The notes: generated by a model from the letters alone, not told the origin. DNA of 32,000 nucleotides from Mycoplasma mycoides subsp. capri (GCF_018389705.1 NZ_CP065581.1:630001-662000); one strand, 5' to 3'; counted from the first letter of the stretch, positions 6,633-31,462 are shown. Numbers and translations: made by a program.

Positions 6633-8846
6633 TTAATCGCTTGTATTTGAATTGTTCTCTGAATTATCTGATGCATTGTTATTTTGTTGATCATTATTAG
6701 TTGGAGTATTATCATCTACTCGACCTATTAATGTAACAGTTTGTAAACTATTATAAGTAAAGTCTTTAGCTTTAAATCTAAAGTTTAATAAATCTGTTAA
6801 AAGACCAAAATCTAAATCGGCATTACGTGTTGAAACAATTGAAATACCTTTAGAAAAATCAACTACTTTATCAAATCCTTCGTTATATGTAGTTTGAAAA
6901 TCTTTGTTTTTATAGAATAATGATTGATAATGATTACCTAAATTTTGATAAATACTAAACTTTTTAACTCCTAACATATTAGAAGTTAAATACTGGTCTT
7001 TTAACCTTTTAGCATCAGCACTAAAATCTAAACTATAAAAACTAGTTGGATCTGTTATTTCGTTACTATTATTTAGGTATTTTTCTCATTCAGATCAAAT
7101 GTTAAAATCTTTATCTTCAAAATCTTCTAAATTACTTGGTTTTCCTGTCATATTGAATAGGTTTTTTCTTTGTGAATAATGAATTTCAGTTTTAACATCT
7201 TTATCTGTTGTGTATGGGAAATTAGGATTTGCTTTTCTAATTCCATAAAATTTATGAAATTCTTCTAACATAATTTCAATACCTTTATAATATGCATCAA
7301 ACATATTAGATTTTTTATAACCTTCATATTTTAGTTTTTCTTTGTTGTCAAAATCTATATTTCTATCATTTTGATCAATTTGTACTACATAATTAAAATT
7401 AATGTTTCCTAGATCATGAATATATCCACTTTTTAGTTTTAATTGTAAACCTTTTAATTCAAAACTTTCAATTGCAGTTGCTGATTTAAATAGATTTTTT
7501 AAAAGATCGTCTCTATCAAATTTTTTACTAAATTCAGATATATCTTTTTCATCTAAAAATTCAAATTTTGAATAAATATCAGTTAGTTTTTGTTTAATTA
7601 CTTCTTTAAAACTAGTTAATTTATTTACTCAAGGTTCAATTAGATCTTGAACTAAATTCATATCTCCCTGTTTTGTAGTAATTAAATCTAGTTTTTGATT
7701 TTTATTAACTTCACCAAAATATAGATGCAATAATTTGTATGCCTCTTCTTTTAAAGAGCCACCATCTTGATTATTATAATTTCTTTCTAAAGGACCAATT
7801 TTTAATTCTGTTTTAATTCTATCAACATCAGTTTTTTGCTCTGGATCTTTATATGAAATTTCTAAATTCTTAACTACTTGATTTTTATTGTTTTTTATTA
7901 ATTTTTCTGAAATTTCATCTTTGATTTTATCGGCTAATTTTTGACTATAAAGATATGTTGCATTTTTATAATTATAGCTAGTTGCTGTTAGTAAATCTTG
8001 AGCAGTTAAAGATTCGTGTTCATTTAATAATTTTTTTAATTCTTTAAAATCAACTGTTAAAAGATCTTTATTATTAAATAGTGAATTAGATCAAAATTTC
8101 TGAATATTATGAACTAATTCAATAACAGCATTTTCACTAGAAATATTAATTATAAAATCATTTGAAATAATTTCTCTTTTAGTTTGTCCATGACCATCTT
8201 TATATTGATAATTAAAGTCTAATCCAATTTTAATAGTTGAATTAAATGAACCATTATCTTCTTCTAAAAATTTCATTTTAGAATTATCTAATCTAAACTT
8301 AAATCCTACAACTAAATTGTTATTAAAATTATCTAATAGAATTCTATATTTATCAATTCCTGTTTTTTTTACTTGTTCTAAAAACAACCTTTTAGCACTA
8401 TGAATACCTAAAACAGTTTCTAAAGTTTTTTGAAATTCTTCTTTTCTTCTATTTGTAAGATTAGAATAAAAACTATGATATCCATCTTTATCTTCATTTG
8501 GATCTCTTTCGCTTACAAGTTGCCTAATACTTTCTTTTGAAAAAAAGCTTTGATTCTCATCTAGATCTTTTGATAAAATAGCTGTTCTTGAAACAATATA
8601 AGGTCTTACAGCCTCATTATAAGCATCTCTCATTTGACTATTAAAACTCTTAATTAAGTCAAGTATTGATTTATTTCTATCACTACTATCAGGTTTAGTA
8701 GTTGGATCAGGTTTAGTGTTTGAATCAGGTTTAGTATTTGAATCGGGTTTTTTGTCTTCTGATTTATCTCTAATACATGCAACAACTGGACTTGCAGCTA
8801 GTGTTATAAAACTAGAAAGTGTTAATAATTTTAGTAGTTTATTCAT
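6633..8846 (-). CDS. Large surface lipoprotein (about 737 aa)
   Basis: Signal peptide with lipobox MNKLLKLLTLSSFITLAASPVVAC. Track fragments 8091-8846, 7095-7304 and 6633-6977 share one frame. The junctions I checked are TGA; real TAA at 6633. Interior continuity was only spot-checked. Confidence 0.7.
8689..8760 (-). repeat. In-frame 18-nt tandem repeat encoding KPD(S/P)(N/T)T units
   Basis: tcaggtttagtNNttgRa repeated at 8689, 8707 and 8725, with a degenerate copy at 8743. It encodes KPDSNTKPDSNTKPDPTTKPDSS just after the lipobox. Confidence 0.7.
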
Positions 8847-26471: not shown

Positions 26472-26754
26472 CACTTCTCTAATTAACTATTTATATTATA
26501 AATAAAAGCATATAAATAAAAGTTAAAATTAGTTATAAAACTCAGTTTATAGTCATAAAATTTAGCTATTTGCTTTTAATTAATAATTATAGTTTAAAGT
26601 TTAGAAATTAAAATTCTAATTTAGATTTAATAACTATACAAAATGTAAAAAAGTTTTATTTAGAAGATTATTAAAAATGAAAATGAGTAAATAATAAATA
26701 ACCATTCTTAGTCAGATTACTTGAAATATTAAAATCAGTATGGTATGTTAATAA

Positions 26755-26775
26755 TATAAATATTTTATATTTATA
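26755..26775 (+). promoter_or_regulatory. Conserved 21-bp palindrome (promoter/operator), copy A
   Basis: TATAAATAT-TTT-ATATTTATA, with perfect 9-bp arms; contains TATAAA/TATATT -10-like hexamers. Confidence 0.6.
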
Positions 26776-26873
26776 CGTTGATTGCGAAGAAGGTTCACTG
26801 AACGAAGGCTTCCGGCGGTGAAGCCAGAAATAAATAGAACCAAAAATAGAACTCCTTTTAGGGTTCTTTTTTT
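26776..26873 (+). ncRNA. Candidate small RNA or leader, class 1, copy A (upstream of P1)
   Basis: G+C-rich body. Helix GGTTC (26792-26796) / GAACC (26837-26841) encloses hairpin GGCTTC-cggcggt-GAAGCC (26807-26825). Terminator AGAACTCC-tttt-AGGGTTCT plus T7 ends at 26873. The 5' end is inferred. Confidence 0.6.
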
Positions 26874-26926
26874 ATATATAATTAGTATCTAATTAGAAAG
26901 ATAAACTAAGATTTATTAGTAGTTTA

Positions 26927-27655
26927 ATGTTTGGTACAGTATTTAGATTTAGAAATTTAGATAATACATTACCAATAACAAGAGATAGATATTTTGAACC
27001 TATAGATACCAGTGGTAAAAAACTTCACCGTCCTTATGTTGTTTTTTATTCTGATGATAAGGTTTATTATTTATCTGTTAAAACATTAAAAAAAAAAGAA
27101 AATGAAGCTTCTGTTTATAGAAACCAAGATACTAATGTAATCTTATTAAATAAAACTGTTTATTATGAACCAGTTAAAGGTGAAGCTCTTGGTAATGTAA
27201 TAGATTGTTCATCTGTAAATATAATGGATAGAAAATTATTTGAACAATTATTTGAAAAAGACAGTTTTAAAAATAATTACCAACTAGCTCCTTGAATTTA
27301 TGATCAAGTAATGAACAAACTTTATGAAAATAAAAATAATTTAGTCTTCCATGAAGTAACTGGTTTTAATGACAACAAGGTTGAATGAATGATTGATAAA
27401 ACAAAAACTGAGCAGGGTCGTTTAGAGTATGAAAAATGACGAACAAGAGTTGAAAAAGTAATCACAACTGTAATAGAAATTTATCATTCAATTTCAAGAG
27501 ATGATATAGAAAAAAGATTAAACAATCAAGAAGAATACGTTAAATTTATTAGTCCAATCTATTATGATGAATTAGAATACGTTTATAAATCTTTTGAAAT
27601 AGATGATAAATGAGAAGAATATCAAAAAAGTAATTCTAATAAGCATAAGATGTAA
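26927..27655 (+). CDS. P1: PemK/MazF/ToxN-like N-terminal domain protein with a helical C-terminal domain (candidate toxin)
   Basis: Track ORF 26927-27295 extended across 4 TGA codons (every codon hand-translated) to the TAA at 27653; 242 aa. Motifs GTVFRF, HRPYVVFYSDDKVYYLSVKT and GNVIDCSSVNIMDRKLF. Confidence 0.8.
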
Positions 27656-27796
27656 TTAAGATTATAGGGGTTCTTTTTTTTATACTTATTGGGTATCGCT
27701 TCCTAATATATACTAAGTAAATGTAAAATATAAATATATAAAATAGTTTGCTTGCTATTAATTACAACATCAAAAATTATTATGATATAGTTAAAG

Positions 27797-27817
27797 TATA
27801 AATATTTTATATTTATA
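27797..27817 (+). promoter_or_regulatory. Conserved 21-bp palindrome, copy B
   Basis: Identical TATAAATATTTTATATTTATA. Confidence 0.6.
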
Positions 27818-27916
27818 AGATTGGTGGTTGTAGTTCTTCCGGCCCTGTCTACCATTTGAGATGACGAAATTGAGAATAGAACTAAGTTAGAACTCTCTTA
27901 AAGGAGTTCTTTTTTT
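27818..27916 (+). ncRNA. Candidate small RNA or leader, class 2, copy B (upstream of P2)
   Basis: TGGTGG / CTACCA helix. AGTTCT (27832-27837) is complementary to two AGAACT copies (27878-27883 and 27889-27894). Terminator AGAACTC-tcttaaag-GAGTTCT plus T7 ends at 27916. Confidence 0.6.
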
Positions 27917-27958
27917 ATATAATTTAGTTATATATCTTAAAAAAATAGTAGGTATCAA

Positions 27959-28897
27959 ATGGGTATAGAAGCAGGTAAAATCTATAAAAATCGAAACCAA
28001 GAATATAATTTTTTTATAGCAAAAGATAAAGATGATGAAGTAATTAAAGGTCATGGTATAAATAGACCATTTATTATATTTTATAGTGATGATAAAGTTT
28101 ATTACTTATCTGCTAAAAGTATTAGTAAAAAGAATAGAAAAAAAACTTTAGCTGATAAGTTTAATGTTGTTTTTAAAACAGATCTATATGGAGAAGATAA
28201 AGAAGTAGCTATAAATTGTTCAGTTATAAATATAATGGATAGAAAATTATTTGAAAGTTTATATGTTAAAGATGATGATATGAACAATTTTCAAACTACT
28301 CCATGACACTATGATAAGATAATGGGAACTTTATATAGATATTTTGATGAAATAACATATGCTGAAGCTTCACATATTGATAATGATACGCAACAATTAG
28401 TGTGAAAATCTACTTTAGAATCTAAATTAAATAAATTAGATTGTTTAAAAGTAATCAAAGGGTATAACTATCTTTTATTTGAAAGTGATATATCAAGAAA
28501 AGAGTTGCTAGATAATCCTGATAAATTTTTTAGTTTAGTTACAAGCTTTTATGAAAGAGTTAAATTTGAAACTCAAGAAGATTTTGATGAATATGTTATT
28601 ACACACCAAGAAATGGAATCTATCAAATATGAAGTGCACATTAAAAATGCAATTAAAGAACTAAAACAAAATCTAGAAAAAGAAAAAGAACAACATAAAC
28701 TATTAGAACAAGAGATAGATGTTGTTAAAAAACTAAATTATAAAAATAGTAAAATACAAGAGATGAACCAAGAGCTTAAAGATTGAGAAGAATTAGTTGA
28801 AATATCATCACATAAAACAAATAAAACTAATTCTGATAAAAAAACTGATGAACCAGATAAACCTAAGCAAAATCAATCTAGCAAGCTTAAAATGTAA
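27959..28897 (+). CDS. P2: divergent paralog of P1/P3 (candidate toxin) with a longer Glu/Lys-rich C-terminus
   Basis: Track ORFs 27959-28306 and 28505-28786 are in frame; the junction was hand-translated across TGAs. 312 aa; TAA at 28895. Motifs GKIYK, NRPFIIFYSDDKVYYLSAKS and AINCSVINIMDRKLF. Confidence 0.8.
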
Positions 28898-28952
28898 TTA
28901 AAACTATAATATCTTACTATATATTAAGTAAGTAATAAAGATATAATAAAGA

Positions 28953-28973
28953 TATAAATATTTTATATTTATA
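28953..28973 (+). promoter_or_regulatory. Conserved 21-bp palindrome, copy C
   Basis: Identical TATAAATATTTTATATTTATA. Confidence 0.6.
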
Positions 28974-29070
28974 GGTTGAGCGGTAGCAAGTTCATCTAAA
29001 CCGTGACTTCCGGCGGTGAAGTCTAAATAATTTGAACTAAAAATAGAACTCCTTTTAGGGGTTATTTTTT
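28974..29070 (+). ncRNA. Candidate small RNA, class 1, copy C (orphan, in tandem with D)
   Basis: AGTTCA (28989-28994) / TGAACT (29033-29038). Hairpin GACTTC-cggcggt-GAAGTC (29005-29023). The terminator 3' arm is weakened (GGGGTTA) and followed by T6. Confidence 0.55.
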
Positions 29071-29188
29071 ATACTTAATATATACTAAGTAAGTATAAAA
29101 TATATTATAAAATATGAACTTTATGCATATTAAATAATTTATTTTGATGTTATTTTCAAATACAAAAATTAATATGATATAGTTAAAG

Positions 29189-29209
29189 TATAAATATTTT
29201 ATATTTATA
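29189..29209 (+). promoter_or_regulatory. Conserved 21-bp palindrome, copy D
   Basis: Identical TATAAATATTTTATATTTATA. Confidence 0.6.
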
Positions 29210-29307
29210 CATTGAGCGGCAGTGGGTTCATCTGGTCATGGCGTCCGGAAGTGATGCCGAAAATAATTGAACTAAAAATAGAACTCCTTTTAGGGGGTTC
29301 TTTTTTT
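29210..29307 (+). ncRNA. Candidate small RNA or leader, class 1, copy D (upstream of P3)
   Basis: GGTTCA (29225-29230) / TGAACT (29268-29273). Hairpin GGCGTC-cggaagt-GATGCC (29240-29258). Terminator AGAACTCC-tttta-GGGGGTTCT plus T7. Confidence 0.6.
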
Positions 29308-29345
29308 GTATAATCAATATGTAATAGAAAGATAAACTAAGATTT

Positions 29346-30092
29346 ATGAATAGTGGAATGTACGGTAAAGTGTTTAGATTTAGAAATTTAGATAATACAT
29401 TACCAATAGCAAGAGATAGTCTTTTTAAAAATATACCAACTGATAATAGTAAACTTCACCGTCCTTATGTTGTTTTTTATTCTGATGATAAAGTTTATTT
29501 TTTAAATGTTAAAACACTAAAAGAAAAAAATAAAAATAATGTTGATAAGTACATAGATACTAATGTAATCTTATTAAATAAAACTATTTATAATCAACCA
29601 ATTAAAGGTGAAGCTCTGGGTAATGTAATAGATTGTTCAGTCGTAAATATAATGAATAGAAAATTATTTGAACAACTTTACCAAGAAGATGAGTATTATA
29701 ATAACTATCAATTAGCTCCTTGAATTTATGATCAAGTAATGAATAAACTTTATGAGAATAAAGATAATTTGATAGTTCATCAACTCAAAGCTTTTGATTT
29801 TGAAAATAATAAAACTCTTTGATATGAAACTACAAAATCTAATGACAAGCAAAATTCAACTGATAACAATAAGTGATTAGCTAGAGCTAAAAAAGTAATC
29901 ACAACTGTAATAGAAACTTATCATTCAATTTCAAGAGATGAAATAGAAAAAAGATTAAATAATCAAGAAGAATACATTAAATACATTAGTCCAATCTATT
30001 ATAACGAATTAGAATACGTTTATAATTCTTTTGAAATAGATGATAAATGAGAAGAATATCAAAAAAGTAATTCTAATAAACATAAGATGTAA
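29346..30092 (+). CDS. P3: close paralog of P1 (candidate toxin)
   Basis: Track ORF 29346-29723 extended across TGAs to the TAA at 30090; 248 aa. The C-terminal 70 aa are nearly identical to P1 (KVITTVIE.YHSISRD.IEKRLNNQEEY...DDKWEEYQKSNSNKHKM). An alternative start is the ATG at 29358. Confidence 0.8.
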
Positions 30093-30094
30093 TT

Positions 30095-30119
30095 AAGACT
30101 ATAATATAGTCTTTTTTTT
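30095..30119 (+). terminator. Rho-independent terminator of P3
   Basis: AAGACTATA-a-TATAGTCTT followed by a T-run. Confidence 0.7.
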
Positions 30120-30234
30120 ATACTTAATATATACTAAGTAAGTATAAAATATTATAAACATATAAACTTTATGCATATTAAATAATTATTTTGATATTAA
30201 TTGCAATACCAAAATTATTATGATATATTTAAAG

Positions 30235-30255
30235 TATAAATATTTTATATTTATA
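30235..30255 (+). promoter_or_regulatory. Conserved 21-bp palindrome, copy E
   Basis: Identical TATAAATATTTTATATTTATA. Confidence 0.6.
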
Positions 30256-30353
30256 CGTTGAGTGGCAGTGAGTTCATCTGGTCATGGCGGACGATTGGTG
30301 AAGCCGAAAATAATTGAACTAAAAATAGAACTCCTTTTAGGGGTTCTTTTTTT
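30256..30353 (+). ncRNA. Candidate small RNA, class 1, copy E (orphan, inner hairpin disrupted)
   Basis: Same outer GTTCA/TGAAC and terminator as copy D. The inner hairpin 5' arm reads GGCGGAC against the 3' arm GAAGCC, so only GGC/GCC can pair. Confidence 0.5.
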
Positions 30354-30468
30354 ATACTTAATATATACTAAGTAAATATAAAATATAAGAATAATATAAA
30401 CTTTATACATATTAAATAGTTTTCTTGCTATTAGTTGCAATACCAAAATTATTATGATATAGTTAAAC

Positions 30469-30489
30469 TATAAATATTTTATATTTATG
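30469..30489 (+). promoter_or_regulatory. Conserved palindrome, copy F (last base differs)
   Basis: TATAAATATTTTATATTTATg. Confidence 0.55.
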
Positions 30490-30588
30490 ATATCGGTGGT
30501 TATAGTTCTTCCGGCCATGTCTACCATTTGAGATGACGAAATTGAGAATAGAACTAAGTTAGAACTCTCTTAGAAGAGTTCTTTTTTT
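30490..30588 (+). ncRNA. Candidate small RNA, class 2, copy F (orphan)
   Basis: Near-identical to copy B (GGTGG/CTACC, AGTTCT, two AGAACT). Terminator AGAACTCT-cttaga-AGAGTTCT plus T7. Confidence 0.55.
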
Positions 30589-30701
30589 ATACTTAATATA
30601 TACTAAGTAAATATAAAATATATTAGAACGTATAAACTTTGTATATGTATTAAGTATTTTTTTATTTTTGCAAGTCCAGAATTAATATGATATAGTTAAA
30701 G

Positions 30702-30722
30702 TATAAATATTTTATATTTATA
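30702..30722 (+). promoter_or_regulatory. Conserved 21-bp palindrome, copy G
   Basis: Identical TATAAATATTTTATATTTATA. Confidence 0.6.
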
Positions 30723-30820
30723 AGTTGAGCGGTAGCAAGTTCATCTAAACCGTGACTTCCGGCGGTGAAGTCTAAATAATTTGAACTAAAAATAGAACTC
30801 CTTTTGAGAGTTCTTTTTTT
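30723..30820 (+). ncRNA. Candidate small RNA, class 1, copy G (orphan; 114 nt upstream of the DUF285 gene)
   Basis: Body identical to copy C. Terminator 3' arm changed to GAGAGTTCT (AGAACTC/GAGTTCT pairing), followed by T7. Confidence 0.55.
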
Positions 30821-30934
30821 ATACTTAATACGTACTAACTAACTTTAAAATATATTAGAAAAATTAAATTTTATCTATATTAAATAGTTTGCTTGTTATT
30901 TATTTAAAATAATATTAAAAATAAATTAAAGATT

Positions 30935-31462
30935 ATGATGAATAAAATTATAAAACAACCAGTTTATAATACTAATCAAACTGAATGCTTAGAAATTGGA
31001 TATGAATGATATGATAATCAAATATCAATTATTCCATTTCCTCATACTATTAAAAAAGTTCCAAGAGTTTTACCAACTCAAATTACTAGTTTAGAAAATG
31101 CCTTTATTTATAATCAAAATGAATTTATTGATGGAATAGAGTACTGAGATACATCAAATATAACTAATATGTATTCTATGTTTTATGAAGCTAATAATTT
31201 TAATCAAAATATTAGCATGTGAGATGTAAGTAATGTTGTTGATATGAGTTATATGTTTTGTTGAGCTTATAAATTTAATCAAGACATTTCAAATTGAAAT
31301 GTAAGTAATGTTAAATATATGAATGATATGTTTTATTGTGCTAATAATTTTAATCAAAATATTTCTAAATGAAATGTAAGTAATGTAAAAAAGGATTATC
31401 AAAATATTGGTAGTGGTGGGTTTAATTGAAAAGATGAGTTTAAACCTAAGTTTAATAAATAG
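30935..31462 (+). CDS. DUF285-type (BspA-like leucine-rich repeat) protein
   Basis: Fully hand-translated: 175 aa with 7 TGA = Trp codons. Repeats of the form MF..A..FNQ.IS.W[DN]VSNV are characteristic of the Mollicutes DUF285 family. TAG at 31460. Confidence 0.8.

Follow-up and report, generated by a model that had tools for sequence, protein, structure and literature searches.

The region between 26.7 and 30.8 kb of a 32,000 nt stretch of Mycoplasma mycoides subsp. capri DNA (NZ_CP065581.1:630001-662000; referred to below as the window, with positions counted from its first letter) raises the question of what its repeated, structured elements are, and what they do beside the protein genes that some of them precede. 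A first-pass annotation had described an inner hairpin and an enclosing helix in several of the copies, with compensatory changes in their stems, and had argued for selection on RNA structure rather than on a coding or protein-binding DNA sequence. We find that the region is an array of seven independently transcribed small RNA (sRNA) genes of the MCS4 family, each of about 120 nt and each consisting of a promoter, a 5' hairpin, an outer helix enclosing an inner hairpin, and an intrinsic terminator. These RNAs are one half of a conserved module, which had escaped the first-pass annotation, in which the structured sRNA gene is followed, past its terminator, by a gene of the Mbov_0400 family whose product is predicted to fold like an endoribonuclease toxin. 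Both conjugative elements and chromosomal islands carry the module, and RNA genes outnumber protein genes. We propose, with moderate confidence, that MCS4 and Mbov_0400 together form a type III-like RNA-antitoxin/RNase-toxin (or abortive-infection) module, a reading to which the predicted protein structures contribute.

Reading frames in the window cross TGA, and we therefore translated it with genetic code 4, in which TGA encodes Trp; the G+C content is 21.8%, and M. mycoides entries match the encoded proteins at 96% or full identity, in keeping with the occurrence in Mollicutes of the Rfam family RF02713 (MCS4, Mycoplasma sRNA). All seven copies lie on the plus strand between 26755 and 30821 and align to the full length (positions 1–123) of the 123-position RF02713 model, with E-values from 2e-8 to 0.02 in a search of 4.4 kb. 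The curated gathering score of 56 bits is exceeded by three copies (B, E and F) and missed by four (D, G, C and A), whereas a covariance model rebuilt from 24 homologs, denoted R1, scores all seven at 65–116 bits. An identical 20-mer, TATAAATATTTTATATTTAT, opens every copy. The copies are as follows, those without a gene downstream being termed orphans:

26755-26874, plus strand: copy A, class 1a, gene-linked; Rfam 35.2 bits (E = 0.02), R1 64.9 bits; 5' hairpin at 26755-26775, terminator at 26848-26867
27797-27917, plus strand: copy B, class 2 (canonical), gene-linked; Rfam 66.1 bits, R1 116.2 bits; terminator at 27889-27910
28953-29072, plus strand: copy C, class 1b, orphan; Rfam 37.2 bits, R1 86.9 bits; terminator at 29047-29063
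29189-29308, plus strand: copy D, class 1b, gene-linked; Rfam 52.0 bits, R1 92.9 bits; terminator at 29280-29301
30235-30354, plus strand: copy E, class 1b, orphan; Rfam 58.6 bits; inner stem cut to GGC/GCC
30469-30589, plus strand: copy F, class 2, orphan; Rfam 58.3 bits, R1 110.6 bits
30702-30821, plus strand: copy G, class 1b, orphan; Rfam 42.7 bits, R1 89.5 bits; core identical to that of C

The consensus MCS4 elements (5' hairpin, outer helix, inner helix and terminator hairpin) are all present in these RNAs, and the central helices of RF02713 are the outer and inner helices of the first-pass annotation, which had not recognized that the RNAs belong to a described family whose consensus already includes both. 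No other Rfam family, U6 included, matches the interval 26600–31000 at E <= 1, and a search for tRNAs and tmRNAs gave none. In the 1990s MCS4 was reportedly described in M. capricolum, where mcs4a and mcs4b are the original genes, as stable and abundant, about 125 nt in length, and likened to U6 small nuclear RNA. In the searchable literature we found nothing on the function of MCS4, on an RNA partner for the Mbov_0400 gene family, or on a linkage between the two.

Direct reading of the sequence bears out every stem that had been listed. The inner hairpin of copy A pairs GGCUUC (26807–26812) with GAAGCC (26820–26825) across the loop CGGCGGU; copy C pairs GACUUC (29005–29010) with GAAGUC (29018–29023) across the same loop, and copy G has the same core at 30754–30772; copy D pairs GGCGUC (29240–29245) with GAUGCC (29253–29258) across the loop CGGAAGU. 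The loop is thus 7 nt long in each of A, C, D and G, and both stem changes noted earlier hold: a G-C pair has become A-U at position 2 of the stem, and a U-A pair has become G-U at position 4. The outer helix is formed by GGUUC (26792–26796) and GAACC (26837–26841) in A, by AGUUCA (28989–28994) and UGAACU (29033–29038) in C, and by GGUUCA (29225–29230) and UGAACU (29268–29273) in D, where the terminal pair is G-U. Minimum free energy (MFE) folds of A, C, D and G consist of precisely these two nested helices together with the 5' hairpin and the terminator, with z-scores relative to shuffled sequences of -2.9, -1.9, -4.5 and -3.1 respectively.

Canonical MCS4 RNAs have a 4 bp inner stem and a conserved loop of 12–13 nt, UACCAUUUGAGAU, in place of which the class 1 copies have a 6 bp stem and a 7 nt loop, and class 1 is therefore a divergent variant of MCS4. 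Copy E, although of class 1, has a broken inner stem in which only GGC and GCC pair (GGCGGA...GAAGCC), and its MFE fold differs from that of the other four class 1 copies of the window. A second M. mycoides strain retains this variant too (locus L024:6865-6982); in both strains it is an RNA-only unit, and it could represent either a decaying copy or an alternative fold. All five gene-linked class 1 copies have an intact 6 bp stem, and the disrupted stems are all found in RNA-only copies.

Whether the fold is under selection as RNA is best answered from the wider family. We fetched loci around relatives of the neighboring protein and built the covariance model from 24 RNAs; a search with this model returned 46 MCS4 copies, 42 of them distinct, from 24 sources and at least nine species. 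Over the 42 distinct sequences the 7 bp outer helix and the 4 bp inner helix are paired in 87.1% of cases compared with 76.0% in shuffles, a figure that is an underestimate for the outer helix as the 5' strand of class 1 lies one column off register in the model-based alignment. Changes on both sides are seen at 9 of the 11 pairs (shuffled mean 4.4), and the covariation score is 0.364 as against 0.171 in shuffles and 0.014–0.108 when the 3' partner is slid by 1–3 columns; none of 500 shuffles reaches the observed value on pairing, two-sided changes or covariation score. The clearest pair is CG in 16 sequences, UA in 12, GC in 11 and AU in 3, and an unsupervised ranking of column pairs by mutual information places outer- and inner-helix pairs at ranks 1, 2 and 4. 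RNAalifold finds the same covariation from a plain MAFFT alignment but recovers just three inner-helix pairs, because MAFFT, like the model, shifts class 1 by one column in the outer helix. Wholesale replacement is also seen: in one copy from M. alkalescens the outer helix GGUUC/GAACC has become CUCUUU/AAAGAG, and M. cottewii has GUCU/AGGAC in its place. Nearly all copies retain a 5' hairpin and a terminator, built from stem sequences that are unrelated between lineages. With these additional homologs and statistics, the earlier argument for selection on an RNA fold is supported across the family.

Within class 1 itself, to which the first-pass annotation had confined its argument, the support is real but thin, and the strength of the case derives from the wider family. 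Among 14 class 1 copies from 4 genomes the 6 bp hairpin is paired in 90.4% of cases compared with 86.4% in shuffles, and the covariation score is 0.154 compared with 0.079, a value reached by 3 of 500 shuffles (slid controls <=0.06); two pairs covary, through few events. At the first outer-helix pair, 4 copies have G-C, 9 have A-U and 1 has G-U; at pair 2 of the inner stem, 11 have G-C and 3 have A-U. At pair 4, 9 copies have U-A and 1 has G-U, with a single G.A mismatch in another strain that is plausibly a one-step intermediate between the U-A of copy A and the G-U of copy D.

The alignment also contains a candidate additional helix, between columns 36–43 and 54–61 of alignment A6 (about 27822–27828 with 27837–27844 in copy B), formed by GGUGGU with (U)CCG(G)CC, or in M. 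bovis by GGCAGU with ACUG(A)CC. With the 5' strand of the outer helix lying between its two halves, it would create a pseudoknot; it is not evident in class 1. One of its pairs is AU in 19 sequences, GC in 12 and GU in 11, and is thus paired in 42 of 42. We regard this helix as tentative, because its score of 0.290 is nearly matched by that of the control slid by +1 (0.248).

The copies carry their own transcription signals. Intrinsic terminators are called for all seven RNAs (9 found in the region compared with 0.5 expected), and five copies are preceded by promoter-like sites with an extended TG -10 element:

26721-26749, plus strand: promoter-like site of RNA A, TTGAAA-17-TATGTT with upstream TG
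29155-29183, plus strand: promoter-like site of D, consensus match
30201-30229, plus strand: promoter-like site of E, consensus match
30435-30463, plus strand: promoter-like site of F, consensus match
30668-30696, plus strand: promoter-like site of G, consensus match

These are consensus matches, made credible by a constant offset: each ends exactly 6 nt before the start of its RNA. The terminator of copy G (30794–30814) also scores as a terminator on the minus strand, so it is possibly bidirectional. Copies E, F and G lie within a tandem array in which each unit consists, in order, of spacer, promoter, RNA and terminator:

30113-30890, plus strand: tandem array of 234 nt units holding E, F and G, found by Tandem Repeats Finder (period 234, 3.3 copies, score 755) and by direct-repeat families

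Whole units are also repeated in M. agalactiae and M. bovis, there with a period of 169 nt.

Another potential signal follows the terminator. Reading past the U-run, we find TATAAT in each of the three gene-linked copies:

26877-26882, plus strand: TATAAT after the terminator of A
27918-27923, plus strand: TATAAT after the terminator of B
29309-29314, plus strand: TATAAT after the terminator of D

The orphans have TATACT at the same place, at approximately 29070–29075 (C), 30354–30359 (E), 30588–30593 (F) and 30821–30826 (G). TATAAT is present in 20 of 20 gene-linked plus-strand copies checked in other species, and in a triple array of M. agalactiae (L004:5620-5980) it follows the gene-proximal unit only, the distal units having TATACC or TATACA. 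This hexamer is possibly the -10 element of the protein gene itself. At the Hominis-group loci it stands 7–8 nt before the ATG. This pattern suggests a separate promoter for the protein gene and a near-leaderless mRNA, although read-through from the RNA promoter may also contribute.

The genes that follow copies A, B and D are paralogous members of NCBIfam NF045891, 'Mbov_0400 family ICE element protein' (where ICE denotes an integrative and conjugative element), and score 122.1, 111.9 and 112.5 bits against a curated hidden Markov model cut-off of 55 bits:

26927-27655, plus strand: gene 1, 242 amino acids, 53 nt after RNA A; NF045891 E = 2e-35; identical to P0037
27959-28897, plus strand: gene 2, 312 amino acids, 44 nt after RNA B; NF045891 E = 3e-32; 96% identical to P0001
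29346-30092, plus strand: gene 3, 248 amino acids, 40 nt after RNA D; NF045891 E = 2e-32

The family is small. An exhaustive profile search of 1.84 billion proteins returns 37 cluster representatives, all within NF045891, and so offers no bridge to a named toxin family through remote homologs; no relatives were found in IMG/VR viral contigs, JGI metagenome contigs, GenBank phages or PLSDB plasmids. The gene is found inside a conjugative element in M. putrefaciens, M. mycoides subsp. capri and M. cottewii, where it comes after a giant CDS19-like open reading frame (ORF) and before a ParA-like gene and a gene for a 410-amino-acid recombinase, and in M. bovis and M. agalactiae it is directly upstream of the 410-amino-acid recombinase gene. 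We first thought of cdsE as the name of the gene in the M. agalactiae element ICEA, but its position and size, on which any such assignment here depends, fit cds36 better (0.64 kb, upstream of the 410-amino-acid CDS22; PMC6030558). In the window the array occupies a chromosomal location outside any conjugative element, flanked by scpA/scpB-side genes on one side and a DUF285 gene on the other. Truncated or interrupted family genes of 71–167 amino acids are found at L007:5180-5683, L008:3042-3464, L009:3803-4018 and L017:6438-6878, two of which (L008 and L017) retain the upstream MCS4 RNA; this is decay of a kind often seen for toxin genes.

The association between RNA and gene is constant. When all code-4 ORFs of the fetched loci are profiled, 34 usable family ORFs are obtained, and for 28 of these an MCS4-type RNA ends 13–53 nt upstream on the same strand. 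The linked loci represent ten species, named or provisional, from two distant groups of mycoplasmas: Mycoplasma mycoides, M. feriruminatoris, M. putrefaciens, M. yeatsii, M. cottewii and M. sp. HU2014, together with Mycoplasmopsis agalactiae and M. bovis, and Metamycoplasma auris and M. alkalescens. Two of the six exceptions are gene fragments, and ahead of the other four we recognize, by eye, another cassette comprising a -10 box, a structured region and a terminator; a cassette of this makeup also precedes the most remote member of the family, which comes from a metagenome. The cassettes upstream of the more divergent family genes (L007:6790-6920, L009:5840-5970, L010:30-170, L011:5815-5960 and L025:850-950) have no significant match to MCS4 (E from 0.5 to 3 at the right position) and may represent additional classes of RNA in modules of this type.

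The converse does not hold. No intact protein gene with a readable upstream region lacks an RNA cassette, whereas some 20 RNA units lack a gene, among them C, E, F and G of the window, and this asymmetry is as expected of a toxin-antitoxin pair. The terminators of the window orphans run into the same spacer as is found after the terminators of genes 1 and 3 themselves, so that the orphans look like units minus the gene segment. Complete promoter-RNA-terminator units are also stacked before a single gene, two in M. bovis and three in M. agalactiae, and the chromosomal site that harbors seven RNAs and three genes in the window harbors ten and two, respectively, in a second M. mycoides strain. 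The two partners diverge in step: distances between RNA cores and between protein N-terminal domains are correlated with a Mantel r of 0.91, which none of 2000 permutations reaches. Paralogous modules of the same genome stay distinct, while window module B and the module of the capri conjugative element are 96% and 97% identical.

Predicted structures provide further insight into the protein partner. The AlphaFold model of P0037, which is window gene 1 (predicted local distance difference test score, pLDDT, 82.6; predicted template modeling score, pTM, 0.82), has a beta-rich N-terminal domain followed by long C-terminal helices, and a Foldseek search of the PDB with it gives CptN, the toxin of the type III system CptIN (4rmo_A), as the top match at E = 1.9e-3 and probability 1.00, the next match being at E = 0.12. 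The model of the M. bovis protein P0011 (pLDDT 86.0) likewise has CptN 4rmo_A at rank 1 (E = 2.5e-4, probability 1.00, target-normalized TM-score 0.55), with MazF-mt1 (6kyt_K; probability 0.99, target-normalized TM-score 0.59, root-mean-square deviation 4.8 A) at rank 2, AbiQ at rank 4, Escherichia coli ToxN at rank 5 and Pectobacterium atrosepticum ToxN at rank 19. The N-terminal domain is thus predicted to adopt an endoribonuclease-toxin fold of the ToxN/CptN/MazF type. The invariant residues of the protein include R37, S44, K47, Y50 and K54, in the numbering of P0011.

The most likely explanation for these observations is that the structured, abundant and stable RNA would bind and neutralize its cognate RNase-like protein, that the RNA-only units would serve to hold the RNA in excess, and that the module as a whole would stabilize or defend the mycoplasma ICEs and chromosomal islands that carry it. 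Tentatively, and falling a little short of what we would claim with confidence, we suggest that this may be a previously unrecognized RNA-antitoxin/RNase-toxin family in which a single sRNA of about 120 nt, perhaps folded with a pseudoknot and transcribed from a promoter of its own to its own terminator, would be the antitoxin, dosage being set by RNA-only copies and the modules being spread by ICEs between distant ruminant mycoplasmas.

Several points weigh against the toxin-antitoxin interpretation. The structural matches are modest (TM-scores of 0.35–0.55, root-mean-square deviations of about 7 A and 8–15% identity), and Pfam, PADLOC, PHROGs and a PDB sequence profile give no match for Mbov_0400 proteins. 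Sequence similarity to ToxN/AbiQ is not found either (hhalign probability 0.07%), although the ToxN/AbiQ profile fails to find CptN as well, and these toxin families are therefore related by fold only. Tandem Repeats Finder reports no short tandem repeats inside any RNA unit, and the class 2 RNA core on its own is without thermodynamic stability (z = -0.4 and -0.9). The post-terminator TATAAT suggests that the gene is transcribed separately, unlike the single operonic promoter of ToxIN. The correlation of RNA and protein distances is also what plain co-inheritance of neighbors would be expected to produce, and transposon insertions in non-coding regions adjoining the section of the M. agalactiae ICE where the gene is located had no effect on conjugation (PMC6030558), an observation that is in itself neutral.

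Other explanations have to be set beside the toxin-antitoxin interpretation. The RNA could be a cis-acting 5' leader or attenuator transcribed from the RNA promoter, whose terminator is read through in response to a signal so that the downstream gene is expressed, the 120 nt species being the terminated leader. Its location directly upstream on the same strand, with the terminator so close to the start codon in at least nine species, would suit such a role, and the 5' half of the terminator in mycoides-type copies (AGAACUC) is similar to the 3' strand of the outer helix (AGAACU), which makes an alternative pairing conceivable. However, this resemblance is absent from the M. agalactiae, M. bovis and M. 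auris copies and there is thus no conserved antiterminator, for which reason we rejected a conserved terminator/antiterminator switch. A leader is also difficult to reconcile with the four of seven window units, and the approximately 20 units overall, that have no downstream gene yet retain promoter, fold and terminator, with the stacking of two or three complete units before one gene, and with the TATAAT that in Hominis-group loci stands 7–8 nt from the ATG and so implies that the protein has an mRNA of its own, almost without a leader; we consider it unlikely. A non-toxic role for the pair, in which RNA and protein would serve regulation or RNA handling of the conjugative element (excision, partition or transfer) and the toxin-like fold would be an RNA-binding scaffold, draws on the position of the ICE module between conjugation-channel genes and the ParA-like and DDE-recombinase genes, on the name given to the family by NCBI, and on the long helical C-terminal extension, which is absent from CptN and ToxN. 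We nevertheless think this improbable, as two M. mycoides strains have arrays (3 or 2 genes, 7 or 10 RNAs) at a chromosomal site without ICE genes, as the fast turnover of copy number and the frequent truncation of the genes fit selfish or defense modules, and as small genes of the ICE region were not recovered as transfer-essential (PMC6030558).

If MCS4 were a free-standing, trans-acting housekeeping or regulatory sRNA, as the possession of its own promoter and terminator and the abundance described in M. capricolum would allow, its adjacency to Mbov_0400 would be a matter of hitch-hiking. Linkage at 28 of 34 genes in two distant mycoplasma groups, the parallel divergence of RNA and protein, the variable copy number and the location on mobile elements make this very unlikely; there is no Rfam match to U6 at E <= 1, and the conserved core has no match in JGI metagenome contigs. 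It is more improbable still, to the point that we give it little credence, that the RNA acts as an antisense (type I-like) regulator of the neighboring mRNA or encodes a small peptide antitoxin. Copy B (27797–27915) is predicted to pair with the start region of its own gene (27929–28003) at -27.9 kcal/mol (z = -3.7), but 9 of 10 modules show no complementarity above chance (z from -1.5 to +0.4). Many copies do accommodate short ORFs that start with TTG or GTG, yet no reading frame is conserved through the RNA core: the longest ORF is in frame 0, 2 or 1 in 17, 15 and 10 copies respectively, near-identical copies are separated by frame-shifting 1 nt indels, and eight copies lack an ORF that spans the core. 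The compensatory nature of the stem substitutions also argues against both of these variants.

Two further features were noted. An unrelated ORF with a DUF285 domain (Pfam; 30935–31462) follows copy G and contains a 75 nt tandem repeat in 3 copies at 31167–31390, and in the second M. mycoides strain a DUF285 gene likewise follows the array (L024:8776-9309). Elsewhere in the window, a predicted lipoprotein gene on the minus strand (6633–8846) contains an 18 nt tandem repeat at 8688–8750, which encodes a KPDSNT-like motif near the N-terminus.

Taken alone, the conserved fold amounts to the rediscovery of a catalogued RNA family and is of modest interest; the genomic context matters more. Class 1 is a new variant of MCS4, and MCS4 emerges here as the constant upstream partner of an uncharacterized gene family. 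Should the toxin-antitoxin or abortive-infection interpretation hold, MCS4 would gain a function, an RNA-based system of this kind would be added to near-minimal genomes, and the type III concept would widen to antitoxin RNAs that are non-repetitive and independently transcribed. It would also help to explain the upkeep of conjugative elements in very small genomes, and would flag a locus of relevance to the engineering of M. mycoides and M. capricolum chassis in synthetic genomics. A toxin-antitoxin study of M. mycoides subsp. capri (PMC8562856) contains neither 'sRNA' nor 'antisense', and its lone mention of 'small RNA' is general background about RNA antitoxins.

How the module relates to known systems depends on the features that are compared. 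Type III systems have been defined by a Rho-independent terminator before the toxin gene and by short tandem repeats upstream of it (Blower et al. 2012, as quoted in PMC12283969). At the 28 linked loci the terminator does precede the start codon, at the distances given above, whereas the repetition seen here is of whole promoter-RNA-terminator units; according to the same source, type III also takes in RNA antitoxins that lack repeats, AvcI among them. The MazF/Kid/PemK toxins of type II systems enter the comparison through MazF-mt1, the second-best match to a predicted structure, but here no MazE-like antitoxin gene is consistently adjacent, the RNA being the sole constant neighbor, and there is no Pfam match to PemK/MazF. 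AvcID provides a precedent for a single non-repeat sRNA that neutralizes a protein toxin post-translationally (cited in PMC12283969), although the AvcD toxin is a cytidine deaminase with no RNase fold and the RNAs are unrelated. In type III systems the antitoxin consists of 34–45 nt repeats within one operon, whereas each MCS4 RNA is a single gene of about 120 nt with its own promoter and terminator, and the Mbov_0400 gene probably has its own -10 box where ToxIN has a single operonic promoter. The Mbov_0400 protein adds a helical C-terminal domain of 60–150 residues to what is found in CptN and ToxN, and Pfam, PADLOC, NCBIfam (which gives NF045891 alone) and, for ToxN/AbiQ, profile comparison reveal no sequence homology to the CptN, ToxN and TenpN families. 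These differences notwithstanding, the module shares with CptIN, ToxIN (AbiQ) and TenpIN a small structured RNA that is encoded upstream in the same orientation and separated from the gene by an intrinsic terminator, mobile carriers, an excess of RNA over protein genes, and the diversification of RNA and protein as pairs, and it shares with CptIN and ToxIN (AbiQ) a predicted protein fold that is closest to CptN and also resembles AbiQ and ToxN.

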